From the UHGV virus genome UHGV-0176217: a DNA stretch of 32,352 nucleotides. One strand, given 5' to 3'. Each line of letters opens with the position of its first letter. Within the stretch, counting starts at the first letter, position 1. This document shows positions 2,853-32,352 of the stretch, piece after piece. The position numbers and the translations under genes were made by a program. This DNA comes from a virus. Under the pieces are notes generated by a model that saw only the letters and a list, made by a program, of their open reading frames with translations, had not been told where the DNA came from and did not search any database.

Positions 2853-3128
2853 ATGAGTATCCGTATCGAGATAAATCATCAGTATGTAGTTACAAGCGAT
2901 CGCTACCAGTTCATTTTGCAGGAAAAGAAAGTGGCGACTGCTGGAAAAAATGAAGGTAGCGAATGGCTTGATACTGTCGGGTATTACCCGACGATTCAAA
3001 AACTGATTTCTGGTCTGGTGCTACATGACCTTTTAAATGGCGGTGCTGATAGTTTTGCGGCGTTGGGTGAGCAGGTCGAGCAGTTGGGACTGCAATGTCA
3101 GACCGCGTTTTGTGCTGATGGCCGTTGA
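2853..3128 (+). CDS. Hypothetical protein (P2 orf81/82 region)
   Basis: Strong AAGGAGA RBS; stop overlaps the A start. Confidence 0.6.
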   Translation: MSIRIEINHQYVVTSDRYQFILQEKKVATAGKNEGSEWLDTVGYYPTIQKLISGLVLHDLLNGGADSFAALGEQVEQLGLQCQTAFCADGR

Positions 3129-5409
3129 GACTCGGGGGCGTATTGCCCCCTCGCTAGCCCTGCCAATATCTAAGCGCACCGGCGATACTTTCGTTGGTGC
3201 TTATCCCTGGAATGCTCCCCGCGCTGCCATTGGCCGTGACAGACCCCTTACACGTGCCGAATTCCGTCAGGTGCAAGGTGTTTTATACCGGATTGACCGC
3301 CTGCCTTTCTTTCTTAAGACGTTGTTTACTTCCCGTTATAACTTCATTCGCCGCACAAAGAGCCCGCTCGGGGCGCTCTATTTCCTGAAAAACACCTTTG
3401 AGCGGAAGCTGTTGCCGCGTCTTGAGCGCGTTAACGAGCTGTGCGGGATGAATGAATCTGCGTCGATTGGTTTCTTGTCTGAGCATGACGAATATGCGCG
3501 CTTGCCTGATATGAATGACAAAGAGCTGAAAAAATTTGCGGCCAGAATTGCCGCGCAGCTCTGGCGTAAATACGAGGAACTCAGCGACGAATGGGCTGAG
3601 GCATTCGGCGGTAAAGAGACCCTTTTCACCGATGAGGCGCAGGTGCACATATATGGTCAGGTGGCTGGTGTTGCACGCGCGTTCAACTTAACCCCGCTCT
3701 ACTGGAAAAAATACCGTAAGGGTCAGATGACGATCCGCATGGCGTTTTCCGCTATTTCCCGTCTGATAAAAGATGATTGGTGGGTTAACCAGCTCAAGGC
3801 GCAGCGTATGCGCTGGCGTGAGGCGCTGCTTATCGCTGCCGGTGAAGTCAACAAAGACCGTTCACCTTACGCCAGCAAAATGGCGATCCGCGAGGTTCAC
3901 TCGCGCCGGCTGGCTAATCTCGAATACCTGAAATCCTGTGAGCTGGAAAACAAAGTTACCGGCGAACGTATCGACCTCATCAGTAAAGTCATGGGGAGTA
4001 TTTCAAACCCTGAAATACGCCGTATGGAGCTGATGAATACCATTGCCGGAATTGAACGCTATGCGGCCAGCGTTGGTGATGTGGGAATGTTTATCACGCT
4101 GACCACGCCGTCGAAGTATCACCCGACCCGACAGGTCGGCAAAGGTGACAGCAAAACGGTGCAGCTCAATCACGGCTGGAACGAAACCGCATTCACCCCT
4201 AAAAACGGCCAGCGCTATCTGTGCCGAATCTGGAGCCTGATGCGTACCGCTTTCAAAGATAACGATTTGGAAGTGTATGGGATGCGCGTTGTCGAGCCGC
4301 ACCACGACGGCACGCCACACTGGCATATGATGCTTTTTTGCAAACTCGGTCAGCGTAAAGCTATCAACGAAATTATGCGTCGTTATGCCCTCAAAGAGGA
4401 CGGACACGAAAAGGGCGCGGCAAAACAGCGCTTTGAGTCGCGTCACCTTAATCAGGGGGGCGCGGCGGGTTATATCGCCAAATACATTGCCAAAAATATC
4501 GACGGCTACGCGCTTGACGGTCAGCTCGATCACGATACCGGCAAACCTCTGAAAGATACGGCCGCAGCCGTAACCGCATGGGCGTCTACATGGCGTATCC
4601 CTCAGTTTAAACCGATTGGCCTCCCGACAATGGGCGCTTACCGCGAACTGCGTAAGCTGCCGCGCGGGGTGAGTATCGCCAGCGAGTTTGACGACCGTGT
4701 CGAGGCCGTCCGGGCTGCTGCAGATGAGGGGGAATTTGACCTGTACATCAGCGCGCAGGGTGGGGCAAACATGCCGCGTGATGCTCAGGTGGTCAGGGTC
4801 GCCCGTAAGGTGACGGATGAGGTAAACGAATACGAGGAGGATATCGAGAAAGTGGTCGGTATTTATGCCCCTCATCTTGGGGCGAGCCGCGTACATGTAA
4901 CCCGTACAGCGGAATGGCGCATAGTTCCAAAGGTTTTGGCCGTTGAGCCTTTGACCTTAAAAAGCGGCGCTGCCGCGCCTCGGAGTCCTGTCAATAACTG
5001 TGGAAAGCTCACCGACGGTGATACTCCAGTTATGACACCCACACCGTCTGAGCAAGCCGCAGCGGTGTTAAATCTGATTGAGCGCGGAGTTATCGGATGG
5101 AATGAGCCAGACGTCATGAAGGCGCTTAACGGTGCGTTAAGAGCTGGCATCCCTCGCAAAAATCGCCAGCAAAGAAGCAATGCGCTACTCAAAACGAGTG
5201 AGCAAGCTCCATCAGCCAGGATGACAAAACCAGAAAGGGATCGCGTGGCGAAAATTCGTTTCGATTTGGCTCAGGAGGGCATTACCCCGGAACGGTGGGA
5301 GCTCGAAGCGCTGGTGCGTGGGGCAACGGTGATTTATGGCGATAAAAAATTCAAATACGCGGCTGCTGATGAGTGGCCGGGATTCTCAATTCAAGAGGAG
5401 TGGAAATAA
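3118..5409 (+). CDS. A: Replication initiation endonuclease A (rolling-circle Rep, HUH superfamily)
   Basis: 763 aa from ATG at 3118 (MAVETRG...); HUH-like motif TPHWHMMLF; paired active-site tyrosines in GYIAKYIAKN; N-terminus matches P2 A as recalled. Confidence 0.9.
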   Translation: MAVETRGRIAPSLALPISKRTGDTFVGAYPWNAPRAAIGRDRPLTRAEFRQVQGVLYRIDRLPFFLKTLFTSRYNFIRRTKSPLGALYFLKNTFERKLLPRLERVNELCGMNESASIGFLSEHDEYARLPDMNDKELKKFAARIAAQLWRKYEELSDEWAEAFGGKETLFTDEAQVHIYGQVAGVARAFNLTPLYWKKYRKGQMTIRMAFSAISRLIKDDWWVNQLKAQRMRWREALLIAAGEVNKDRSPYASKMAIREVHSRRLANLEYLKSCELENKVTGERIDLISKVMGSISNPEIRRMELMNTIAGIERYAASVGDVGMFITLTTPSKYHPTRQVGKGDSKTVQLNHGWNETAFTPKNGQRYLCRIWSLMRTAFKDNDLEVYGMRVVEPHHDGTPHWHMMLFCKLGQRKAINEIMRRYALKEDGHEKGAAKQRFESRHLNQGGAAGYIAKYIAKNIDGYALDGQLDHDTGKPLKDTAAAVTAWASTWRIPQFKPIGLPTMGAYRELRKLPRGVSIASEFDDRVEAVRAAADEGEFDLYISAQGGANMPRDAQVVRVARKVTDEVNEYEEDIEKVVGIYAPHLGASRVHVTRTAEWRIVPKVLAVEPLTLKSGAAAPRSPVNNCGKLTDGDTPVMTPTPSEQAAAVLNLIERGVIGWNEPDVMKALNGALRAGIPRKNRQQRSNALLKTSEQAPSARMTKPERDRVAKIRFDLAQEGITPERWELEALVRGATVIYGDKKFKYAAADEWPGFSIQEEWK

Positions 5410-5873
5410 TGAGCAAAATCCATGAGTTAAAAATTGCACCTGAGCATTTTAACGCTGTGATATCTCAGGAAAAACGTGCTGAATTTCGTCTCAATAACCG
5501 CGATTATTCTAGCGGTGATATTCTCGGGTTGCATGAATGGGAACCGGTAAACGGATATACCGGGAAACGTGTATCAGTGAGGGTGACATACGTTACTGAT
5601 TTATCTGAATGGGCGGAAAATTATGTGATGCTGAGTTTTCAGTTAATGATGCCAGATGTCAAGTGCGGTATGTCCCTAATGAACTGGAAAGAGTTAAGCG
5701 AGAAGGGGCTTGTTTTCAGAATTAATCACGAAATTCTACACCCGTTAGGGCTGGCTATTGGATTTGAAACACTTAACGGCGTTTCGGGGGGGGCTTATGT
5801 CGCTTGTGATGGTGTCTGGCAATATTCCGACAAGCTGGTCGCAGATGCTAAAAAAAATGGGTGGTTAAAATGA
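5409..5873 (+). CDS. DUF3850 / ASCH-PUA-like domain protein with ~65 aa C-terminal extension
   Basis: N-terminus HELKI.PEHF.AV.S..K.AEFR.N.RD...GD.L.L.EWEP is the DUF3850 signature; start overlaps the A stop; occupies the tin/old position. Confidence 0.7.
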   Translation: MSKIHELKIAPEHFNAVISQEKRAEFRLNNRDYSSGDILGLHEWEPVNGYTGKRVSVRVTYVTDLSEWAENYVMLSFQLMMPDVKCGMSLMNWKELSEKGLVFRINHEILHPLGLAIGFETLNGVSGGAYVACDGVWQYSDKLVADAKKNGWLK

Positions 5874-6094
5874 GTCATATGCGAATGATGCCAGTGCCGC
5901 CCGTACATTCAACGCAAAACATTAAGCTGATGGCCGTCGTGCATCGCCTGCAACAAATTATGATTAACGAGAATCTGACCCCTGACGAACTGGTCGGGTG
6001 TGCCGGTGTCGTCCGGGATAATCACCGCAAATACAGCGATATCAGCAATCCGAAAATTGAGGCGTTTCGGCCATCAAATATGGCGAAGCCATAG
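5870..6094 (+). CDS. Small hypothetical protein, translationally coupled (ATGA overlap)
   Basis: ATG at 5870 overlaps the TGA of the upstream gene; no recognisable motif. Confidence 0.35.
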   Translation: MSHMRMMPVPPVHSTQNIKLMAVVHRLQQIMINENLTPDELVGCAGVVRDNHRKYSDISNPKIEAFRPSNMAKP

Positions 6095-6376
6095 CAAACG
6101 CCGCCGGTGCTGAAACTTGTTTTCAGTGCCAGCGGGGTTGACCAACGAGCCCCGCGAGGCGTTAGCCTGTCCCGTAGAGATCACCCCCAACCGGAACGAT
6201 TAAAGCAGGTTTTATTATGCCATTTTCCCACAATTTCCCGGTTTTTTAGCCGTGCATGCAACAGGTGCATTGTTTTGCATGCGTTGGGGATGCCCGTTCT
6301 GGCCGTGCGCCGCCAGAGCTAGCGCGGATCCAGAGTGGTCATGCAACTGCATTAAAACCGACCCATAAAGCGGGCA

Positions 6377-6395
6377 GGCGAGGCGGGGATAGCAT
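6377..6395. other. P2/P4-type cos site (19-nt cohesive-end sequence)
   Basis: GGCGAGGCGGGGATAGCAT followed by TGCGCGCTGA; near-identical to the P2/P4 cohesive end GGCGAGGCGGGGAAAGCAC TGCGCGCTGA as I recall it. Confidence 0.55.
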
Positions 6396-6484
6396 TGCGC
6401 GCTGAGGGGTTTTAAATTTCATTTTTTTTAGTATTATCAAAAAGAATAATTCAGAATTATCTCAAAAAAGGCAAGGGGCACAAT

Positions 6485-7816
6485 ATGGTGATTAATGAAG
6501 TTAGACGGATAGGTAGTGGCGGTTTTGGTAATGTTGATTTAGTGCAAGATGTCCTTAGCGGAAAGCAATTCGCTAGGAAAACATTTTCTATAAATCAAGC
6601 TCAACCGCTGCCTCCTGATTTGGCAGAGAATGTAAAAAAAAGATTTATAAGAGAGGCAAACGTACAGTATAGACTTACGCATAAAAATATTGTACCTGTC
6701 CTTTTTAAAGATCTAAATAGTAACCCTCCATCTTTCCTTATGCCAGTAGCAGCATCTAGCCTTGATAAAGATATTGCGCAAAGTAGAAACTTGAATGGAT
6801 TATTTTTAAGAGCAATAATGGATATTTTGTCTGGACTCGAAGAATTGCACACGTTGCAAATTTATCATCGTGATCTCAAACCACAAAATGTGCTTAGATT
6901 TGATTCAAGTGAAGGTCCATATTACGCTATTAGCGACTTTGGCCTGATGTCAGTAAAAGATACTCAAATTTCAGCACTAACCCATACAGGTATGAAAATG
7001 GGTTCTGATTACTACACCGCACCTGAAATTGTTTCAGATCTTAGAAAAGCTAGTATTGCTTCAGATATTTATTCTTTGGGGTGTATACTGCATGACTTTG
7101 TAGGCACGGATGAAAGAATTCCTTGTGGTGAAATTAATAATGATTCGAGCGCATATGCGCATATTTTACGGGTTTGTACTCGTAGAGATCCTTCAAGAAG
7201 ATTTCCAAGTGTTGCAGCATTAAGGGATGCAATTCTTAGTATTGATCCTTCTACAGTAATACATCTCTCTGCTGAGGTTGGAACATATACTACAGCATTA
7301 GATAGTGACGCCGGAATTAATGTTGAAACATGGAGGGAAATAATCAATTTCGTAGAGGATAATATTGGACAAGAAAACTCCAAGGTGATATTTCAGCGTC
7401 TAACTTTAAACAGGATTAATGAGATAATCGCTCATGATACCACGCTAGCTTGTCGTCTTGGTGAAGCATATGGTCGTTGGGTTGCGGATGGAGTATTTTC
7501 ATTCGAACAGTGTGATGGGATTTGCACTCGTCTCGAACAATTTTTACAACTTCACGATTTGAACTGTAAAGCCGAAATTATTATAGCTATGCTTCTTATG
7601 GGAACGTCGCATAATCGTTGGTATGTCGAGAGACGCTTCATGAGCGTGGCAGGGCACGACATGACTCCAGAACTGGCTAAAAGGCTTGCTTTGGAAATGA
7701 GCATACTTGAGGGTAGAATGTGTGCAGCGGTGAGTCATCTCCAAAGATCAATTGGTGCCACACCTGATATGCTTCATCCTGAACTTTTCGCAATGATACA
7801 AAGAGTATGCCATTGA
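6485..7816 (+). CDS. Eukaryotic-like (Hanks-type) Ser/Thr protein kinase with ~170 aa C-terminal domain of unknown function
   Basis: Gly loop GSGGFGNV; FARK lysine; conserved Glu (REANVQY); catalytic loop YHRDLKPQNVL; DFG (ISDFGLM); APE (YTAPEIV); DIYSLGCIL; AT-rich gene; RBS AAGGGG. Confidence 0.85.
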   Translation: MVINEVRRIGSGGFGNVDLVQDVLSGKQFARKTFSINQAQPLPPDLAENVKKRFIREANVQYRLTHKNIVPVLFKDLNSNPPSFLMPVAASSLDKDIAQSRNLNGLFLRAIMDILSGLEELHTLQIYHRDLKPQNVLRFDSSEGPYYAISDFGLMSVKDTQISALTHTGMKMGSDYYTAPEIVSDLRKASIASDIYSLGCILHDFVGTDERIPCGEINNDSSAYAHILRVCTRRDPSRRFPSVAALRDAILSIDPSTVIHLSAEVGTYTTALDSDAGINVETWREIINFVEDNIGQENSKVIFQRLTLNRINEIIAHDTTLACRLGEAYGRWVADGVFSFEQCDGICTRLEQFLQLHDLNCKAEIIIAMLLMGTSHNRWYVERRFMSVAGHDMTPELAKRLALEMSILEGRMCAAVSHLQRSIGATPDMLHPELFAMIQRVCH

Positions 7817-8517
7817 TTAATAAATTTGCTTACACATCTCCGGGACCTAGAAGCCACAACCAAGACTCTATCTTGGTTGAGATTTTACCCAGCGCTGATT
7901 TGTTATGTGGCGTTGCGGATGGTGTCGGCGGGAATTTGGGGGGAGAAACAGCCTCTCAATTAGCACTGGACATTATTGCTGCGGCCATGCGTTCGGATAG
8001 TAGCATCTCTCTTCTCGAAGCCATAACCCGAGCTGATGAAGCGATCAAAGATGCTGCTCAGAAAGATGGAAAATTGGCTGGAATGGCAAGTACTGTGACT
8101 GTAACAAAGCTTATCGGGAATAAATTGATAGGAGCCAATTGTGGAGATTCTCGGACTTATCTATTAAGAGGAAGTGGCGTCAAACAACTTTCCTATGATC
8201 ACAGTGAAGTAGCTCGTCTACTACGTGAAGGTAAGCTGACGAAAGAGACTGCAGTTGATTACCCTCGTAAGAACATTCTTGATAGTGCCCTTGGTGCACA
8301 CAAGCCTCTACAAGTCCATGAATTTGAATGTAATTTACAGATAGGTGATAGAATAGCTTTGCTATCTGACGGGGTTTCGTCAGTTGTGAGCAAAAAAGAT
8401 TTCCGAGATCTTTCAGTGAAATATAATTCGTTAAATGAGTATGGTGCTAGTGTAATAGAGCTTGTTGAGAGTAGAGAGACTAGGGATAATTATTCATTGA
8501 TTATTTTTGAAATTTAG
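7807..8517 (+). CDS. PP2C-family (PPM) Ser/Thr phosphatase
   Basis: Motifs SHNQDS, ADGVGG, CGDSRTYL, LLSDGVSS; start overlaps the kinase stop by 10 nt. Confidence 0.85.
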   Translation: MPLINKFAYTSPGPRSHNQDSILVEILPSADLLCGVADGVGGNLGGETASQLALDIIAAAMRSDSSISLLEAITRADEAIKDAAQKDGKLAGMASTVTVTKLIGNKLIGANCGDSRTYLLRGSGVKQLSYDHSEVARLLREGKLTKETAVDYPRKNILDSALGAHKPLQVHEFECNLQIGDRIALLSDGVSSVVSKKDFRDLSVKYNSLNEYGASVIELVESRETRDNYSLIIFEI

Positions 8518-8529
8518 TTTTGTAATATA

Positions 8530-8558
8530 GGTGCGTTATTTAAAATGACGCACCTTTT
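8530..8558 (+). terminator. Intrinsic terminator after the kinase-phosphatase operon
   Basis: Stem GGTGCGT / ACGCACC with 11-nt loop, then TTTT. Confidence 0.5.
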
Positions 8559-8569
8559 CTCATTTTGTT

Positions 8570-9577
8570 TTAAATAGAATATTTTTCAAATTGTATTACA
8601 TCTTCTTGAAGCCAGTCGTTAATCTCTTTGAAACGCTCCTGCAATGGCGTCAGCTCGTTACGCACAAACACCCGCGCCACCTTCTCAACGTCACCCATTG
8701 AGCCGATGTTTTCCGGCTTGCCGCCCATCAGCTGAAACGGCACGCGGTGCGCATCGAGCAGGTCAGCGGCACTGACCTTTTTGATGTTGAAAAAATCATC
8801 CTTCGTGGCGACTTCACTCAACGGCACAATCTTGATCCCGTCTGGCTTTCCGTTGGGCGCGTAGAAAAACAGGTTCTTAAAATTCCCCAGCCCTTTTGAG
8901 TCGCGCATCGCGTTACGGAGCGATTCAACGTCGGTGCTACTCTGTGCCGCGTCGGTGACATACATGATATACCCCGCGTGCGCCCCGTTCTGGTAATACT
9001 TACGACGAAATAACGTGGCGGATTCATTCAGCCAGGCTGAATTGAGTGCGCTCAGGTATTCCGGCATCCCGTAAAGTTCCTGATTGATATCGGGCTCAAG
9101 CAGATGACACACCGAGCCGGGCGCGAACGGGTGCGGCTGGGTGTAGCTCGATACGTACCAGTAAACGCCATCCTCGACACCCCGGCGGGTGTATTTGGCC
9201 GGGGAGGTTTCCAGTTTTAATAGCTGGCCGGTGACGCTCATGCGCTTCTCAAGATAGCCGTTGGCAAAGACCAGATAATCGAGCACAAGACGGCTGAAAT
9301 CCTGACGCGACAGCAACGGGTGCGGAATGTAGGTGCTCGCCAGAATGTTACGCTTCACGTAAATCGGCGAGCTGTGGTGAACGGCGGCGCGCAGGCTTTT
9401 TGCCAGTCCCGAGAAATTGACCGGCGGCTCGTACCATTTCCCGTTATTGATGCACTCGACATAGTCGAGGATGTCGCGGCGATCCAGAACGGGGGACGGC
9501 TCACCAAAGGTAAACGCCTCCATTTTTTGCGGTGCGCTGGCGGTCATTGTGGCGGGTTTCTTCTGTCGTTTTTTCAT
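8570..9577 (-). CDS. Q: Portal protein (P2 gpQ-like)
   Basis: 335 aa from ATG at 9577, directly after the P stop; first in P-Q leftward operon order. Confidence 0.85.
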   Translation of the reverse strand: MKKRQKKPATMTASAPQKMEAFTFGEPSPVLDRRDILDYVECINNGKWYEPPVNFSGLAKSLRAAVHHSSPIYVKRNILASTYIPHPLLSRQDFSRLVLDYLVFANGYLEKRMSVTGQLLKLETSPAKYTRRGVEDGVYWYVSSYTQPHPFAPGSVCHLLEPDINQELYGMPEYLSALNSAWLNESATLFRRKYYQNGAHAGYIMYVTDAAQSSTDVESLRNAMRDSKGLGNFKNLFFYAPNGKPDGIKIVPLSEVATKDDFFNIKKVSAADLLDAHRVPFQLMGGKPENIGSMGDVEKVARVFVRNELTPLQERFKEINDWLQEDVIQFEKYSI

Positions 9578-9578
9578 C

Positions 9579-11348
9579 TTAGTTAATATCCAGAATTGAG
9601 GTTGATTGCATGCCGCTACCGGCGGAAAGTGGCTCATTTAACAGGGCGTGCATGGTCGCCCACGCAATATCCGCGTGGCTGGCCTCTTCGCTGCGGCTGG
9701 CCTCATAGGTGGCACTGCGCCCGCTGCTGGTCATGGTTTTACGAATCGCCATAAACGACTGCGTGATGTCGGTTGCACCGGCGTCATATTCCAGACACCC
9801 ACGTCGGATGGTGTCTTTCGCTTTCAGCACCATCGCGGTTTTCATTTCCGGCGTGTAGCGAATGGCGCGGGCTGCCGGAAAGAAGGAGCGCACGAGCTGG
9901 TAAACCCCCTGGCCGATGCCGGTTGCATCGATGCCGATATACTCGACGCAATATTTCTCTGTCAGCTCGCGGATAGCCTCGGCCTGCGTTGCAAAATCCA
10001 TCCCTTTCCACTGGTGACGCTCAAGGATGCGGAACTTGCCACCGGCAACCAGCGGCGGAGCCAGTACCGCACAGCCAGCACTGTCGCCGGTGTGTGACGG
10101 GTCATAGCCAATCCAGACCGGGCGCCAGTTAAACGGACGGTCAGAGAACGGTGCAAAGTCTTCCCATTCTTCCATCGCATCGACCATGCAGCGCTGCAGC
10201 TCCTCGAACGGAAATACAGACGCTTTATCGTCGACGAACTCGCACATGAAGAGGTTGCGAAAGTCGTCGGCGCTGTTTTCCTGTTTCAGCTGATCCAGAT
10301 TAAACAGCGTACATCCTCCGGCGAGGGCGTCCTCGATGGTGACAATCTGCCGCCACTGTCCGTCCGGGCATAACACCCCACCGGCGAGCGCCTTGTGACT
10401 GATATCGATGTCGACGCGCTCACTCGCGCTGATGCGTCCCCGGTTAAACAGCTCACCTGACCAGAACGGATACGCACCGTGTGCCAGCGTTGAGGGTGTT
10501 GAAAAGTAGGTGGTGCGCAGGTGGGACTGTGACGCCATCCCCGACGCCACTTTGCGCAGCCTCTGAAAGTTGGGGATCCAGAAGATTTCATCGACATACA
10601 GGTCGCCGTTGTGGCTCTGCGCGGTGTTGGAGTTTGTCCCGAGGAAAATCAGCTCTGCGCCGTTATTGCCGATGACAATCGGGTCGCCTGACAGGTCGAC
10701 GTCGACCATGCGTGCAAAGGCGATGATGTACTTTCGGAACACGTAAGCCTGCGTCTTACTGGCGGATAAAAATATCTGGTTTTGCCCGGTTTTGAGGGCG
10801 CGCAGCAATGACTCGCGGGCAAAGTAAAATGTCGCGCCAATCTGGCGTGATTTGAGGATGTGGCGAATACGGTGCGCGATACCGGCCTTGTGCCAGTTGA
10901 GCTGATACTCAAAGGACTGGTCGAGGAAAATCTCTTCCAGCTTTTCGATGGCCTCATCGCTGAAAAAATTCCGTTTCGGCTTACGGCGATCGCCCTTATT
11001 ACGGCTGGCAATACTGGGGTTTAAATCCACCTCGTTTCCGGTCTGGCCGTAGCGGTTGATGCGCGCGAATCGCTCCATCTGGCGCGACAAAAAATCAGCG
11101 ACCTTGAAGTCATGCGGTGTCAGGTCAGGCTTTGCATACAGCTGAATCAGGCGCGCCTCGAGCGTCGTTTCCACGCGGTTAAGCGGGGCGGTTTCCTCCC
11201 ACCCGTCGCGCTGTTTCCAGCTCTGCACGGTCGGGCGCTTGACCTGCAGCGTGTCGGCGATTTGTGGCACGGAAAATCCCTGCCAGAACAACAGACGCGC
11301 CTGTCGTCGCGGGTCATGTAAAAGGGAGAGGTCAGTCGAAATGGTCAT
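9579..11348 (-). CDS. P: Terminase large subunit (P2 gpP-like)
   Basis: ATG at 11348 (MTISTDLSLL...) with GAGG RBS; the ORF-track start at 11378 is TTG; N-terminus matches P2 P as recalled. Confidence 0.9.
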   Translation of the reverse strand: MTISTDLSLLHDPRRQARLLFWQGFSVPQIADTLQVKRPTVQSWKQRDGWEETAPLNRVETTLEARLIQLYAKPDLTPHDFKVADFLSRQMERFARINRYGQTGNEVDLNPSIASRNKGDRRKPKRNFFSDEAIEKLEEIFLDQSFEYQLNWHKAGIAHRIRHILKSRQIGATFYFARESLLRALKTGQNQIFLSASKTQAYVFRKYIIAFARMVDVDLSGDPIVIGNNGAELIFLGTNSNTAQSHNGDLYVDEIFWIPNFQRLRKVASGMASQSHLRTTYFSTPSTLAHGAYPFWSGELFNRGRISASERVDIDISHKALAGGVLCPDGQWRQIVTIEDALAGGCTLFNLDQLKQENSADDFRNLFMCEFVDDKASVFPFEELQRCMVDAMEEWEDFAPFSDRPFNWRPVWIGYDPSHTGDSAGCAVLAPPLVAGGKFRILERHQWKGMDFATQAEAIRELTEKYCVEYIGIDATGIGQGVYQLVRSFFPAARAIRYTPEMKTAMVLKAKDTIRRGCLEYDAGATDITQSFMAIRKTMTSSGRSATYEASRSEEASHADIAWATMHALLNEPLSAGSGMQSTSILDIN

Positions 11349-11410
11349 GGTTGCCTCGTGTCGGTGAATACGGGACAAGGCTAAGGAAATAGCCGGGCAT
11401 TATCGCTAAC

Positions 11411-11433
11411 CCCCTGTTGTGTCAGGGGTTGCA
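11411..11433. promoter_or_regulatory. Candidate Ogr-dependent late promoter element in the divergent P/O region
   Basis: Dyad CCCCTG-ttgtgt-CAGGGG containing GTTGTGTCAG, ~100 bp upstream of O; the same 10-mer recurs upstream of FI. Confidence 0.35.
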
Positions 11434-11514
11434 CTTCCGCAAGCGGTGGCTGATGCGGGGCGGAGTCGGGAAACTACCCCCGAACCGAAAACCTAACATC
11501 AGGACACCTGAACA

Positions 11515-12369
11515 ATGGCAAAGAAAGTTTCTAAATGGTTTCGCATCGGCGTCGAAGGTGACACCTGCGATGGCCGTGTCATCAGCGGTGATGACATTCA
11601 GGAAATGGCGGATTCCTTCGACCCGCGCGTCTACGGTTGCCGCATTAACCTCGAACATATCAAAAGCCTCTGGCCTGACAGTCCGTTTAAGCGTTATGGC
11701 GACGTGACCGAAGTCAAAGCGGAAATCATCAGCGATGACTCTGCGCTGAACGGTAAAAAGGCGCTGTTTGCCAGAATCGCCCCGCTTGATGAGCTGGTCA
11801 GCATGGTGCGCGCCGGTCAGAAGGTTTACACTTCGATGGAAATTCGCCCGAATTTCTCCAACAGCGGCAAATGCTACCTGATTGGCCTCGCCGTCACGGA
11901 TGACCCGGCAAGCCTCGGCACCGAATACCTGGAATTCTGCAGCCGCGCCAGCCAGAACCCGCTCGCCGGTAAAAAAGACCAGCCGGGCGATCACTTCTCG
12001 GTGGCTTCCCTTGCTGAGCTGGAATTCGAGGACGTCCCCGATACCATGCTCAACAGCCTGACCGACAAGGTCAAAGCCATTTTCAACCGTAAACAGGCCA
12101 GTGACGATGCGCGCTTTGCCGATGTGCATGAAGCGGTGACGGCGGTCTCTGAGCAGGTGCAAACCAACCTGACCGCCACTGAAACGCGCGTCACCGAACT
12201 CGAAACCGCGTTTGCGCAGTTTAAGCAGGATGTGACCCGCCAGACCGAAGAAAACGCGCAGGCGTTTACCTCGCTGAAACGTTCCCTCGATAACACCGAA
12301 AGCCATCGCCAGCCGCGCCGCGAGAAATCGAAAGGCGGAACGGGCGACGAGCTGCTGACCAACTGCTGA
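11515..12369 (+). CDS. O: Capsid scaffolding protein (P2 gpO-like)
   Basis: 284 aa, same length as P2 O; position between P and N. Confidence 0.85.
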   Translation: MAKKVSKWFRIGVEGDTCDGRVISGDDIQEMADSFDPRVYGCRINLEHIKSLWPDSPFKRYGDVTEVKAEIISDDSALNGKKALFARIAPLDELVSMVRAGQKVYTSMEIRPNFSNSGKCYLIGLAVTDDPASLGTEYLEFCSRASQNPLAGKKDQPGDHFSVASLAELEFEDVPDTMLNSLTDKVKAIFNRKQASDDARFADVHEAVTAVSEQVQTNLTATETRVTELETAFAQFKQDVTRQTEENAQAFTSLKRSLDNTESHRQPRREKSKGGTGDELLTNC

Positions 12370-12429
12370 TAACCCGCCGGGTGCGTGTCACCCGGCCTGA
12401 TGCCCTTTTTTAGAAAAACAGGAATAACA

Positions 12430-13497
12430 ATGCGTAAAGATACCCGCTTTAAATTTAATGCTTACCTGTCCCGCGTGGCGGAGCTGAACGGCGTCGACAC
12501 CGACGATGTGGCAAAGAAATTCACCGTTGAGCCGTCCGTGACGCAAACCCTGATGACCACCCTGCAGGCGTCATCCGCGTTTCTGACCAAAGTGAACATC
12601 GTGCCGGTCGACGAGCTGAAAGGCGAAAAAGTCGGGGTGGGCGTCAACGGTACGATTGCCAGCACCACCGATACCGCCGCTGATGATGAGCGTAAGACCG
12701 CAGACTTCACCGCGCTCGAATCCAACAAATACGAATGTGCGCAAATCAACTTCGATTTCCACATCCGTTACAAACAGCTCGACCTGTGGTCGCGATTCCA
12801 GGACTTTCAGACCCGTATCCGTGACGCGATTATCAAGCGACAGTCGCTCGATTTCATCATGGCCGGTTTCAACGGTATCACCCGGGCGGAGACTTCAAAC
12901 CGTAAAAACAATCCGATGCTGCAGGATGTGGCGGTGGGCTGGCTGCAGAAGTACCGCAATGAAGCTGCCGCGCGCGTGATGTCAAAAATCACCGACGAAG
13001 ACGGCAAGATTATTTCCGATGTGATCCGCGTGGGTAAAAACGGTGACTATGAAAACCTCGATGCGCTGGTCATGGATGCGACCACCAACCTGATTGATGA
13101 GATTTATCAGGATGACCCGGAGCTCGTCGTTATCACTGGCCGTAAGCTGATGGCGGATAAATATTTCCCGCTTGTCAACAAGGCACAGGAAAACAGCGAA
13201 ACGCTGGCCGCTGACATCATCATCAGCCAGAAGCGGATCGGCAACCTCCCCGCCGTGCGTGTGCCGTACTTCCCGGCGAATGCCCTGATGGTGACGCGTC
13301 TCGATAACCTGTCGATTTACTTCATGGATGACGCACACCGCCGCGCCATCATTGAAGAGCCGAAAAAAGACCGTATCGAAAACTACGAGTCAATGAATAT
13401 TGACTATGTGATCGAGGCTTACGCGGCCGGTTGCCTGATTGAGAACATCAATTTAGGTGACTTCACCGCACCTGCCGCCCCGGAAAGCGGAGAGTAA
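12430..13497 (+). CDS. N: Major capsid protein (P2 gpN-like)
   Basis: 355 aa from MRKDTRFKFNAYLSRVAELNG...; closely matches P2 N from memory; AGGA RBS. Confidence 0.9.
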   Translation: MRKDTRFKFNAYLSRVAELNGVDTDDVAKKFTVEPSVTQTLMTTLQASSAFLTKVNIVPVDELKGEKVGVGVNGTIASTTDTAADDERKTADFTALESNKYECAQINFDFHIRYKQLDLWSRFQDFQTRIRDAIIKRQSLDFIMAGFNGITRAETSNRKNNPMLQDVAVGWLQKYRNEAAARVMSKITDEDGKIISDVIRVGKNGDYENLDALVMDATTNLIDEIYQDDPELVVITGRKLMADKYFPLVNKAQENSETLAADIIISQKRIGNLPAVRVPYFPANALMVTRLDNLSIYFMDDAHRRAIIEEPKKDRIENYESMNIDYVIEAYAAGCLIENINLGDFTAPAAPESGE

Positions 13498-13500
13498 GCC

Positions 13501-14253
13501 ATGACGAGTCCCGCAGCGCGTCACATGATGCGGGTCTCGGCCTCTGAAACTGCGCGGCGGGCTGCTGCTCCGCTGCGCAATGCAACTGCCTATGAGCAGA
13601 TGCTCGTCAAGCTGGCCGCAGACTGTCGCACGTTAAAACAAATCCGTTCCAATGAGCGCAAGGCAGACAAAAAGCGTGAGCTGCTACCGTTTTATCTGCC
13701 GTGGGTGGGTGGCGTTCTCAGCTCCGGCAAAGGGGCGCAGGATGACATTGTCATGACCGTCATGCTCTGGCGTCTTGATGCTGATGACATTGCCGGTGCG
13801 CTGGAAATCGCCCGCTACGCGATGACGTATGGCCTGACCATGCCGACCGGCGGCCACCGCCGCACAACGCACTATCTGCTGGCCGAAGAGGTCGCCCTGT
13901 CAGCGCAGCGCCTGCTTGATGCAAAACAGCCTGTCGGGCTGTCGCTCCTGCTCGACACCATCGCACTGACCGAACGCGCAGATATGCCCGATATCGTGCG
14001 CGCGAAGCTGCACAAAATCACCGGCTACGTGCTGCGTGATGCTGGCAACCTGACTGACGCGCTGGCGCACCTGCAGCGAGCGATCCAGTTAGAGCGGGCT
14101 ATCGGTGTGAAAAAGGATATTGAGCAGCTTGAACGCGCGCTGAAACCCAAACCAGAACCCGCACCCAAACAGAATAAACCGCGCCCGCGCCGTGCCGCTA
14201 AACCGGCGGCACGGCGCGGGCGTCCCCCGAAAGCGGCAAAAGCCGCAGGTTAA
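13501..14253 (+). CDS. M: Terminase small subunit (P2 gpM-like)
   Basis: 250 aa; basic C-terminal tail; position after N. Confidence 0.8.
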   Translation: MTSPAARHMMRVSASETARRAAAPLRNATAYEQMLVKLAADCRTLKQIRSNERKADKKRELLPFYLPWVGGVLSSGKGAQDDIVMTVMLWRLDADDIAGALEIARYAMTYGLTMPTGGHRRTTHYLLAEEVALSAQRLLDAKQPVGLSLLLDTIALTERADMPDIVRAKLHKITGYVLRDAGNLTDALAHLQRAIQLERAIGVKKDIEQLERALKPKPEPAPKQNKPRPRRAAKPAARRGRPPKAAKAAG

Positions 14254-17324: not shown

Positions 17325-18374
17325 ATGTCTAACGATGATAAAACATTGAATTTATTCCCCATAGATTATCCATTTGAGACTTTATGTTCTAGGATGAAGT
17401 CCAATCCCATCAAACTAAAACTGAATCCAGACTTTCAAAGAAAGTACAAATGGGATCAGGACGGATGGCTGCGATCTTCAAAATTCATTGAATCTTGTTT
17501 AATGCGTATTCCTCTTCCATCTTGTTACTTTGCAGAAGATGATAGCGGCAATCATATTGTAATTGATGGTGTTCAGCGATTAACCACAATACAGAAATTT
17601 TTTGATGACGAGTTCGCTTTGGAGGGAATGACTACATTTAAAGAGCTTGAAGGGAAAAAGTTTTCTGAATTAGGATCTCTACGTTCAGAGTTAGAGTCGA
17701 CAACAATAAGATGCATTGTTCTAAGAAAAGAAAATCCCAAAAAATTAATAAGAGAGATATTTTCTAGACTCAATCAGGGGGCAGTTAAACTTTCTGACCA
17801 AGAAATAAGACATGCGTTATATCCGGGAGGGTTTGATGAATTATTAGAAGAGTTAGGTAATATTGATGCCATTAAAAATTTTGGTTTGGCGGAAACAACT
17901 ACAGTAAAAAGAGATAGTCGTGAGCCAGACGAACAAGTTTTGCGTTTTTTTGCATTTTATGAAGATAACTTTTTTGATTACTTTGATAGCTCCTTGAAAG
18001 AATTCTTGGATGATCATATGGAAAAATTTTCAGACTTAAAAGATGATGAACTGAATATTATGAGGGAGAGATTCAAAACATCATTATCTAAGTGTGAAAA
18101 AATATTTGGTGAAGATGTATTTACAAACCCTACAGTTAGGAGAAAACGTAAAGGGTTAGTTCATTATGACATTTTAATGCCTACAATTGGCAAGTTAAAT
18201 GATGATATTGTAAATGAAAAGTCCGAACAAATACGGAATGCTTGGTTTACTCTTTGTTCAAGTGCTGAGTTCAAAAAAACTTTATCAGGTGGGCTACAGA
18301 ATAAGAGTTCGGTGATGAAGCGTAGGGCTAGTTGGGTGGCACTTCTTAAGGAAGTTATTGATGGAAAATACTGA
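17325..18374 (+). CDS. DUF262 (ParB-like NTPase/nuclease domain) protein lacking a fused C-terminal HNH/DUF1524 domain
   Basis: DUF262 signature ...NPDFQRKYKW.......FIESCLMRIPLPS.YFAED..G.HIVIDGVQRLTTIQKFF; AAGGA RBS; strongly AT-rich. Confidence 0.8.
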   Translation: MSNDDKTLNLFPIDYPFETLCSRMKSNPIKLKLNPDFQRKYKWDQDGWLRSSKFIESCLMRIPLPSCYFAEDDSGNHIVIDGVQRLTTIQKFFDDEFALEGMTTFKELEGKKFSELGSLRSELESTTIRCIVLRKENPKKLIREIFSRLNQGAVKLSDQEIRHALYPGGFDELLEELGNIDAIKNFGLAETTTVKRDSREPDEQVLRFFAFYEDNFFDYFDSSLKEFLDDHMEKFSDLKDDELNIMRERFKTSLSKCEKIFGEDVFTNPTVRRKRKGLVHYDILMPTIGKLNDDIVNEKSEQIRNAWFTLCSSAEFKKTLSGGLQNKSSVMKRRASWVALLKEVIDGKY

Positions 18375-18939
18375 ATACTATGATGGATATCGTTCATTAT
18401 TTTTATCCTTAAAAGAAATTATTAAGGAGACGGAGCAACAGGCTATCCTTGAGGAAAATGAATTCTTCAATAAGAACATTAATTTTTTTGTTAAATCGTA
18501 TCTTATTACACTCTGCACTTATTTAGAGTCGTATTTGACTGAGGTTGCAACATGGCACTGCGATACCATCAATCGCAGGCTTAAAGCAGCCTGCTTGCCA
18601 CACAATTTTTTGCTTTGGCGAGTCAAAAAAGATGTTAAAGATAAGGAGTTGAAATATATAGATGCTGATTTAAAGGTTGATAAAAGTGAGGTGTCGGATA
18701 GCCTATCTGGTAATCCTTACAAGACGATTAAGGCATTTTCTTATTTGGGTGTTAATCTTTTGAATTCGGCGGAATTTAATGCGAATAAGGATGTTGTGAA
18801 TGCAGTGGTTGTAAAGAGAAATAACATTATTCATCATAACGACAATGCAAATGATATTAGTCTCACTGACGTAAGTGGTTATGTAGATCTGTTTGTATCC
18901 TATATGGCCGCGATAGATAATATGGTTTGTGGAAAATAA
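18361..18939 (+). CDS. Partner protein with C-terminal R-x4-H (HEPN-like) motif; putative RNase effector
   Basis: ATG at 18361 overlaps the upstream stop by 14 nt, AAGGA RBS; motif KRNNIIHH near the C-terminus; AT-rich. Confidence 0.6.
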   Translation: MENTEYYDGYRSLFLSLKEIIKETEQQAILEENEFFNKNINFFVKSYLITLCTYLESYLTEVATWHCDTINRRLKAACLPHNFLLWRVKKDVKDKELKYIDADLKVDKSEVSDSLSGNPYKTIKAFSYLGVNLLNSAEFNANKDVVNAVVVKRNNIIHHNDNANDISLTDVSGYVDLFVSYMAAIDNMVCGK

Positions 18940-31104: not shown

Positions 31105-32352
31105 GTGCGCCGGGCATGGCGCGTAGCGCCGTGACTGGCGCTGTTCTTCAACTGTGGTGGCTGAAGAACGACTAAGAGGTGAAAGTCCTCCACACACCCG
31201 GTGAGGGGAAGTGTTAGCGGAAGGCAAGGGTGTTCATCGCGAGGTGAAATCTGAAGGAAGCCGGATGCAAAATGCTGGCCTGACGAACAGGAAGCGGTTA
31301 AGGCGGCGCAGCGGGGTAAGGTGGCATACATCACCAAAGCCCGATACTCACACGGAACGCTGTAACGTAGAGCCGACAGGCATAAGCAGGAAAGTCGCGC
31401 GAATTACCCCGGGAGAACTGCCGTCCTGCCAGTGTGCTACCGGCGTCGTAAGGTGCCGGGATGGGGCGGCAGAAGTCAGCCGACGCCGTAGTAGTGCTGC
31501 AAAACCGGCAGCATGAAGGGCCGAACATGATTAACCGTGATTAGGACATCCGAACCCGATGATGATTAATGAAGCACAAGCGCAGGCAACTGCGGCCAGC
31601 GGCAGAGGAGACGGACGGTATCCGTCAGGGCTGCATGATGGCGCTGAAATCAGCACGGCGGCGGGTGGGCAAACGAAAGCGGAAGTGCCGCTGACGATGG
31701 AAGCGGTGATAACGAGAGAAAACCTGATGCTGGCTTATCAGCGCGTGGTGGAAAACAAAGGCGCGGCGGGGGTGGATAACCTCAGCGTGGCGGAGTTGAA
31801 ACCGTGGCTGAAGAAGAACTGGCGCAGTGTCAGGCAGGCATTGATTGACGGAAACTACCAGCCGCGGGCAATACGCCGGATGGATATCCCGAAGCCGGAT
31901 GGCGGCGTGAGAACCTTAGGCATCCCGACGGTGGTGGACAGGCTTATCCAGCAGGCGATTGCGCAGCAGTTAAGTGCCATCGTGGACAAAAGCTTCTCAG
32001 ACTCCAGCTACGGCTTCCGGCCGGGGCGCAACGCATGGCAGGCGGTGCAACAGGCACAGCGTTACATACGGGGCGGCAAACGGTGGGTGGTGGATATGGA
32101 TCTGGAGAAGTTCTTTGACCGGGTGGATCACAGGCTCCTGATGACGCGTCTGGCCAGAACGATAAAGGACAGGCGGGCATGCCGCAGGGCGGCCCGCTGT
32201 CGCCGTTACTGTCGAACATCCTGCTGGATGAACTGGATAAAGAACTGGAGCGTCGTTGACACAGCTTCTGCCGCTACGCAGACGACTGCAACATCAACGT
32301 AAGCAGCCGGAAAGCGGGCGACCATCTGCTGAAGAACATCAGGGCGTTCGTG
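31105..32352 (+). mobile_element. Group II intron, 5' part (ribozyme domains then intron-encoded protein), truncated by the window edge
   Basis: Starts GTGCG a few nt after the terminator T-run; ~450 nt of GC-rich structured non-coding sequence, then the RT ORF. Confidence 0.6.
31559..32352 (+). pseudogene. Group II intron reverse transcriptase/maturase, disrupted and partial
   Basis: RT motifs ...ENLMLAYQRVVENKGAAGVDN..., PKPDGGVRTLGIPTVVDRLIQQA, YGFRPGRNAWQA, then a frame change near 32170-32180 (next frame reads MPQGGPLSPLLSNILLDELDKELERR), an in-frame TGA at 32257-32259, then HSFCRYADDCNINV... Confidence 0.65.

Follow-up and report, generated by a model that had tools for sequence, protein, structure and literature searches.

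Where does the packaging site of a prophage stand relative to its cargo, and on which side of that site have the cargo genes settled? The question is raised by a stretch of viral DNA of 32,352 nucleotides (UHGV-0176217, hereinafter called the window), in which a gene for a Ser/Thr protein kinase and a gene for a PP2C-family phosphatase lie next to the portal gene Q. An earlier note on the same DNA, made from the letters alone, had placed the 19-nt cohesive end at 6377–6395, upstream of this pair, and had proposed that the cargo lies between cos and Q rather than in the classical tin/old slot, and that one prophage carries accessory genes on both sides of cos.

The prophage and its cos site

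First of all, bases 5300–8700 of the window match the E. coli KV7 chromosome (NZ_LT795502.1) at 99.9% identity, and there RefSeq shows a P2-family prophage between yegR and yegQ. The early genes of the KV7 prophage follow one another in the order integrase, repressor-like HTH protein, cox, DUF2732, DUF5405, A and DUF3850 protein; after the DUF3850 protein come a small hypothetical protein, the Ser/Thr kinase, the PP2C phosphatase, the portal protein and the terminase, and after the terminase the full head, lysis and tail set through D and the ogr-like regulator. From int to D/ogr, the core genes are annotated in RefSeq without pseudogene flags. A search for an att repeat inside the window found none, since both copies stand just outside its ends: a 23-bp direct repeat, AAAAAAATAAGCCCGTGTAAGGG, occurs between yegR and yegQ, 57 bp before the window start and again about 730 bp past the window end (L172 1950–1972 and 35092–35114), and the spacing of its copies, 33,142 bp, is close to the 33.6 kb of P2. 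We take this repeat to resemble the P2 att core. Judged from its sequence, the window is a complete-looking P2-family prophage of E. coli KV7, resembling P2 in its early region and 186 in its cos flank and portal gene.

Two further elements were observed away from the cos region. The right arm of the prophage contains a pseudogene of a group II intron reverse transcriptase/maturase at 31559–32302; it stands between attR and the ogr-like gene and runs past the window end. In addition, a second cargo is located at 17325–18939, between the gpS-like gene and the baseplate gene V, and consists of a DUF262 protein (PADLOC NsnA, E 7e-80; PD-T4-2_A, E 1e-42) and an overlapping HEPN-domain protein; its position is presumably the orf30 slot of P2.

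The features that frame the locus are as follows.

3037–5409, plus strand: replication endonuclease gpA, the A-side border of the hotspot (Pfam Phage_GPA, E 9e-109; RefSeq)
5373–5873 (RefSeq start 5409), plus strand: DUF3850/ASCH and DUF7415 protein (DUF3850, E 3e-19; PHROG 1812, E 9e-49)
5861–6094 (RefSeq 5879–6094), plus strand: small conserved phage ORF (PHROG 11386, E 6e-30)
6233–6376, no strand: left flank of cos, that is, the right end of the mature DNA, with repeated TGCAT motifs; presumed terminase recognition side
6341–6402, no strand: near-invariant cos core of about 62 bp (identity of at least 0.9 at most positions in 137 distinct relatives)
6377–6395, plus strand: 19-nt cohesive-end sequence GGCGAGGCGGGGATAGCAT, unique in the window
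8570–9637 (RefSeq 8570–9577), minus strand: portal protein Q/W, the Q-side border of the hotspot (Pfam Phage_portal; RefSeq)
9579–11378, minus strand: terminase large subunit P (Pfam Terminase_6N, Terminase_6C and Terminase_5)

The sequence quoted in the earlier note, GGCGAGGCGGGGATAGCAT-TGCGCGCTGA, is located at 6377–6405. When the 19-mer of P2 was used as the query with up to three mismatches, 6377–6395 was the single cos-like site in the 32-kb window, and 100 dinucleotide-preserving shuffles of the window gave 0 matches (chance expectation 0). The earlier note had matched the cohesive end with the one shared by P2 and P4, and of this the type of site stood, while the identity did not: the 19-mer of P2 and P4 (GGCGAGGCGGGGAAAGCAC) and that of phage 186 (GGCGTGGCGGGGAAAGCAT) each agree with the window at only 17 of the 19 positions. 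The mismatches are confined to positions 5, 13 and 19, which are the polymorphic positions of the family and at which the window has A, T and T, and the window 19-mer fits the degenerate consensus GGCG(A/T)GGCGGGGA(A/T)AGCA(C/T) at 19/19. Among 144 related loci, the commonest 19-mers are GGCGAGGCGGGGATAGCAC (51 loci), GGCGTGGCGGGGAAAGCAT (41) and GGCGTGGCGGGGATAGCAT (26), and the exact variant of the window is rare (2 of the 144).

The position of the site is fixed above all by its left flank. In the phage 186 record, the annotated cos cut site comprises bases 1–19, and the last 145 bases of the same record are 92% identical to 6232–6376 of the window (E 6e-53), so that the record terminates exactly opposite window position 6376. 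This 186-like flank is the decisive evidence for the predicted cos site at 6377–6395, and together with the sole occurrence in the window and the absence of chance matches it upholds the position claimed for cos; cleavage at 6377–6395, which at a site of this type would be a staggered cut by the gpM/gpP terminase leaving 19-nt 5′ overhangs, is what this conservation would imply.

Conservation around the site was profiled with 137 distinct related sequences anchored at cos, as the fraction identical to the window at each position. It falls from at least 0.99 at 6402 to about 0.25 at 6403, and the cos core of the window agrees with the family consensus at every near-invariant position. A cos core of 55 bp was described by Ziermann and Calendar in 1990, as cited in PMC5694545, and the block of about 62 bp at 6341–6402 corresponds to it. 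Moreover, the circularised cos junctions of the window, 186, P2 and P4 were aligned four ways, and conservation was found almost wholly to the left of the 19-mer. A distal block common to all four, AGCCGTGCATGC...GGTGCAT...TTTGCATGCGT, lies about 100–130 bp upstream of the 19-mer, and a proximal block, TGCATTAAAACCG(A/C)CCC...AAAG(C/T)GGGC, stands directly before it, so that the GTGCAT...TTTGCATGCGT and TGCATTAAAACCG blocks of the left flank are also common to P2 and P4; to the right of the 19-mer, the conserved part is (T/C)GCGCGC only. The alignment with P2, 186 and P4 that had been suggested as a check favours the core and the left flank, whereas the match of the 19-mer is weaker than the earlier note had it. 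Repeated TGCAT/ATGCA motifs at 6252–6283 and 6340–6352 are kept in 186, P2 and P4; such motifs to the left of cos are candidate binding sites of the terminase small subunit.

The relation of the window to the cos sites of P2, 186 and P4, which have 19-nt 5′ cohesive ends, can be stated as follows. They share the 17/19 19-mer, TGCATTAAAACCG...AAAGCGGGC on the left, TGCGCGC on the right and a location flanked by the gpA side and the portal gene; the window differs by A/T/T at the polymorphic positions and by what comes after cos, because P2 and 186 have a spacer of about 170 bp there, whereas in the window cargo begins 10 bases after the 19-mer. The right side of P4 is instructive in this respect. 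Its sequence to the right of the core is unrelated to those of the window, P2 and 186, and P4 DNA is nevertheless packaged by the P2 terminase (PMC9122126), a natural case indicating that on the right packaging requires no sequence past the core.

The rarity of the 19-mer variant and the intron pseudogene in the right arm would both suit another account of the locus, in which the prophage is defective or its cos a relic, and the cassette is a chromosomal-island pair stranded in a dead prophage, where its position has no consequence. Against this account, the core genes from int to D/ogr are annotated intact, the cos core meets the family consensus at every near-invariant position, the att repeats are intact, and 33.1 kb fits the head of P2. 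A dead prophage is accordingly judged improbable.

Cargo on the two sides of cos

On the A side, the smaller cargo described in the earlier note, a DUF3850 gene and a small ORF, is indeed present, but it is neither new nor peculiar to this prophage. Orf91 of P2 comes directly after A and is likewise annotated as DUF3850 in RefSeq, so that the DUF3850 gene of the window is the homologue of a P2 gene and no novelty. The arrangement is also a recurrent one: the small ORF at 5861–6094 was found by tblastn in 23 of 160 related loci, and the segment 5300–6402 occurs at about 94% identity in about 250 complete E. coli genomes with other content to the right of cos. The classical tin/old position holds no comparable cassette, the small ORF standing alone between the DUF3850 gene and the cos flank, and about 140 bp of non-coding DNA separate its end (6094) from that flank. 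A 71-codon ORF at 6107–6322 was also considered as a gene. It lacks a RefSeq annotation and a family match and shares sequence with the conserved non-coding cos flank, whose conservation at the DNA level explains its tblastn "homologues"; the ORF is probably spurious.

On the other side, the distance from cos to the stop codon of the portal gene is 2174 bp in the window; P2 and 186 have 167 bp and 176 bp there, with a terminator in both gaps. The GC content of the gap is 0.35–0.45, compared with about 0.55 on both sides, so the claim of roughly 2.2 kb of AT-rich cargo between cos and the portal gene was accurate. The content of the gap is as follows.

6406–8555, plus strand: mobile cargo module (upstream region, kinase, PP2C and terminator), delimited by Klebsiella identity, homology breaks and low GC
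6411–6441, plus strand: possible promoter TTTAAA, spacer of 15–16 nt, TATTAT, read by eye
6485–7816, plus strand: Hanks-type Ser/Thr protein kinase, 443 aa, 1332 bp (Pfam Pkinase, E 1e-28, residues 5–222)
7807–8517, plus strand: PP2C-family Ser/Thr phosphatase, 236 aa, 711 bp (Pfam PP2C_2, E 5e-11)
8529–8555, plus strand: hairpin terminator in the interval from the PP2C stop to the Q stop, with a 12-pair stem followed by a T-run

The limits of the module were drawn from two sides. A chromosomal island of Klebsiella is 80% identical at the DNA level to the window over 6406–8515, and this identity takes in 79 bp upstream of the kinase start codon; in blastn comparison with the 160 related loci, the left homology block ends at 6402 in 98 loci (range 6401–6431). 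From the breaks in the relatives and the span of the Klebsiella copy, the unit that moves extends over about 6406–8555; it begins 4 bases past the cos core and 10 bases past the 19-mer. On the right, DNA homology to the relatives resumes at 8610–8612 in about 118 loci, 13 codons inside the 3′ end of Q, and in a few loci the block starts at 8576–8580; since homology resumes only inside Q, swaps of cargo seem to take the 3′ end of Q along. The 3′ end of the portal gene (8570–8609, the last ~13 codons) is AT-rich, unlike that of most relatives. As for signals, the Klebsiella copy has TTTAAA-17-TAGAAT at the place equivalent to the possible promoter and a similar hairpin after the pair. A consensus promoter scan found none in 6403–6484, between cos and the kinase start, and because it did not report 6411–6441, we only infer a promoter for the module.

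These observations bear directly on the remaining account of the position, namely that the cassette occupies the classical A-side tin/old slot, that the apparent cos is a chance or duplicate match, and that the true cos stands beside Q. The 32 kb contain a single cos-like site, its conserved left flank stands to the left of the cassette, and the 52 bases from the PP2C stop to the Q stop contain a hairpin only. The alignment, the uniqueness of the site, this 52-base interval and the conservation profile together refute such a placement, to which practically no probability is assigned. The pair lies to the right of cos, whereas tin/old of P2 are located between orf91 and cosR, and the cargo was thus rightly placed between cos and Q.

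How often this slot is filled was surveyed in loci that encode relatives of the portal protein, 80 from species-representative genomes and 80 from IMG/VR, in which cos was located by pattern and the distance to the portal stop measured; the IMG/VR top 80 are close relatives and redundant.

Species-representative genomes: 73 with a recognisable cos; gap of at most 250 bp in 43; gap above 500 bp in 28 (38%), up to 3736 bp
IMG/VR top 80 (close, redundant relatives): 71 with a recognisable cos; gap of at most 250 bp in 55; gap above 500 bp in 10 (14%)

The 38 occupied slots contain 79 ORFs of at least 70 aa, which fall into 60 sequence clusters with a GC content of 0.33–0.51, and none of these clusters shares the kinase or the PP2C. 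As in the window, 59 of the 79 ORFs run from cos towards Q (counted from the listing). Their products match Lamassu LmuA/LmuB, AbiL, PARIS AriA, Avs5, PDC-M03, PDC-M11, GmrSD, SIR2, ABC-3C, HicB and others, and by these matches the cargo in the slot appears diverse and mostly of defence type. Since 499–5039 bp (median about 2.2 kb) separate the end of A from cos in the surveyed loci, the gpA side is never empty, and all 38 occupied loci have accessory genes on both sides of cos. In complete E. coli genomes, a concatenated query of cos and Q found the two within about 830 bp of each other in 1408 of the 3097 matching records, from which no clean percentage follows, because the other records mix Q-side cargo, diverged flanks and P4 cos sites; of four E. 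coli exceptions inspected, three hold 1.3–2.3 kb in the Q-side slot. The window does have accessory genes to the left and to the right of cos, as the earlier note had it, but the layout is not exceptional, for Q-side and two-sided cargo are common in this phage family and have been described before.

Two loci illustrate the variety of the contents. In E. coli EC12, one of the three filled exceptions just mentioned, the retron Ec48 (reverse transcriptase and membrane effector) stands between a P2-type cos and the portal gene (L179 2654–4935), and a second reverse transcriptase is present on the gpA side of the same cos. The IMG/VR contig L102 has the most similar A side (DUF3850 protein 91%, small ORF 97%) and carries at 11164–13904 a wholly different two-gene Q-side cargo of 2.8 kb, that is, a swap with the flanks unchanged.

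The kinase and the phosphatase

The two genes of the module are closely joined, the PP2C gene overlapping the kinase stop codon by 10 bases. In the kinase, the glycine loop, K32, HRDLKPxN, DFG and APE are invariant in 34 homologues. Its C-terminal domain (about residues 263–441) is conserved and all-helical, with a mean pLDDT of 88 in the AlphaFold model, and no relative of it was found among solved structures by sequence; this domain could be a sensor of phage. Along its whole length, the PP2C can be aligned with bacterial PP2Cs of solved structure, such as Stp1 and PstP (E 1e-21 to 3e-23). In PADLOC 2.0, the kinase matches mad6, PD-T4-6, Stk2 and MkoA over residues ~6–250 only (E 1e-22 to 7e-32), and the PP2C, the DUF3850 protein and the small ORFs gave no match. 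The single-gene kinase defences PD-T4-6 and Stk2 were rejected as identities for the pair, because the matches are limited to the generic kinase domain and those systems have no PP2C partner.

At E ≤ 1e-10, 682 homologues of the kinase were found; almost all of the best 120, which come from Proteobacteria and Bacteroidota and share about 50% identity, span the full length (~440 aa). A PP2C follows the kinase in all three contexts examined: in Klebsiella the pair adjoins genes for Hachiman-like HamA and a helicase, RES and ArdC, in Pseudomonas it adjoins P2-type tail genes, and in Vibrio cholerae it is located in an island with a family-B polymerase. By tblastn, the kinase and the PP2C are absent from the 160 related prophage loci, so that descent within this phage lineage does not account for the cassette; moreover, the pair occurs in 1 of 5426 complete E. 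coli genomes. Among the papers that could be searched, none dealt with the two-gene kinase–PP2C form or reported a defence phenotype for it.

The closest characterised system is KKP (PfpC-PfkA-PfkB), a PP2C–kinase–kinase system of prophages with genes of 900–1300 bp each, which is a demonstrated toxin–antitoxin defence against lytic phages, acting when a phage protein inhibits the phosphatase (PMC11341870). [quoted passage not shown] However, KKP has three genes with the PP2C first, whereas the pair in the window has the kinase first and then the PP2C, with one 443-aa kinase that possesses its own helical C-terminal domain; given this number and order of genes, the pair is not a member of KKP. 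By analogy, the pair is a candidate toxin–antitoxin-like defence module, and a KKP-like way of working seems the most economical hypothesis for it.

The same comparison can be turned the other way: the pair may instead regulate the lysogeny of its own prophage or the physiology of the host, or be a plain addiction module, with no anti-phage role. KKP doubles as lysogeny control and defence, regulating the induction of the Pf prophage through phosphorylation of MvaU (PMC11341870), and Hanks kinase/PP2C couples such as StkP-PhpP and PknB-PstP are general signalling pairs; the pair, besides, is without a PADLOC model. What tells against a purely regulatory role is the company that the pair keeps: the other occupants of the slot are largely recognised defence systems, the Klebsiella homologue stands amid Hachiman-like, RES and ArdC genes, and the cassette moves between unrelated contexts and so is not bound to the regulatory circuit of one phage. 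A role outside defence is a real but somewhat doubtful possibility, and action in defence is what these neighbourhoods suggest.

On this basis, the following explanation is proposed. The sequences required by the terminase would be the core at 6341–6402 and what lies to its left on the gpA side, and the ~170 bp between the core and the portal stop would be dispensable. A self-contained module of 2.1 kb, transcribed from cos towards Q, would have taken the place of this spacer, and after excision and cos cleavage it would constitute the leftmost genes of a virion DNA of about 33.1 kb. The slot is one half of the known gpA–gpQ hotspot, with its cargo exchanged often, and the module would most likely be a phosphorylation-based toxin–antitoxin or abortive-infection defence, in which the phosphatase restrains the kinase until an infecting phage upsets the balance. 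Taken as a whole, that is, a P2-family prophage with an intact cos core and a self-contained module that replaced the spacer in the hotspot and likely serves defence, this explanation is held to be highly probable.

Precedents and meaning of the arrangement

The hotspot itself is well described. Rousset et al. (2022) took the cos-proximal stretch from gpA to gpQ as the hotspot of P2 and reported 1,650 arrangements for 18,150 loci, and Moura de Sousa et al. (2026) defined the gpA–gpQ hotspot identically. The window has the same borders (A at 3037–5409, Q at 8570–9637), the same place next to cos and the same variable content; the difference is that both papers treat gpA–gpQ as one locus, whereas the present analysis places the cargo on the Q side of a fixed cos core. 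The set WP_029392163 + 162 + 161 + 160 even stands as one arrangement in Table S5 of Rousset et al. (2022), and in the KV7 annotation the accessions 163, 161 and 160 (DUF3850 protein, kinase and PP2C) are present, with WP_371415104 as the small ORF. The layout is thus already known, this protein arrangement having been catalogued there.

Q-side cargo also has precedents in other phages. [quoted passage not shown] In phiCTX, cosL (1–21) is followed by a promoter, ctx (362–1222) and two terminators, with Q on the opposite strand. The ctx of phiCTX and ORF1–4 of the Ralstonia phage phiRSY1 have the same architecture as the window, with the cargo on the strand opposite to Q, but the hosts and the cargo are unlike those of the window, phiCTX carrying a pore-forming toxin and phiRSY1 a set of miscellaneous ORFs. 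In the satellite P4, the hotspot genes gop, beta and cII lie on the same side as the cargo of the window, after the first 247 bp from cos; the likeness is cargo to the right of the shared core at the packaged left end, and the difference is that P4 has no portal gene. As for tin/old of P2, these are accessory anti-phage genes beside cos, as the cargo in the window may be, but they stand on the other side of it and are transcribed away from cos towards A.

What is new would be of two separate kinds: the pair may constitute a distinct two-gene phosphorylation-based toxin–antitoxin or abortive-infection system, and the gpA–gpQ hotspot may consist of two slots split by the cos core; both are put forward tentatively, with confidence somewhat short of even. 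With the slot common and catalogued, the finding of cargo beside cos is correct but ordinary, and it adds little by itself. It does fix the position of cos in this prophage, where a 2.1-kb module abuts the minimal packaging signal, and this agrees with the idea that packaging requires nothing more than the core and the gpA-side flank; the spacer from cos to the portal gene would be a free docking site for cargo. For annotation, the gpA–gpQ hotspot would be divisible at the cos core into two slots, of which the Q-side slot appears to be filled in roughly a third of lineages, with a bias to transcription away from cos. The kinase–PP2C system may be widespread and lie outside current defence databases, and the pair, being mobile, found among defence genes in other genera and KKP-like in its logic, would be a reasonable candidate for defence screening.
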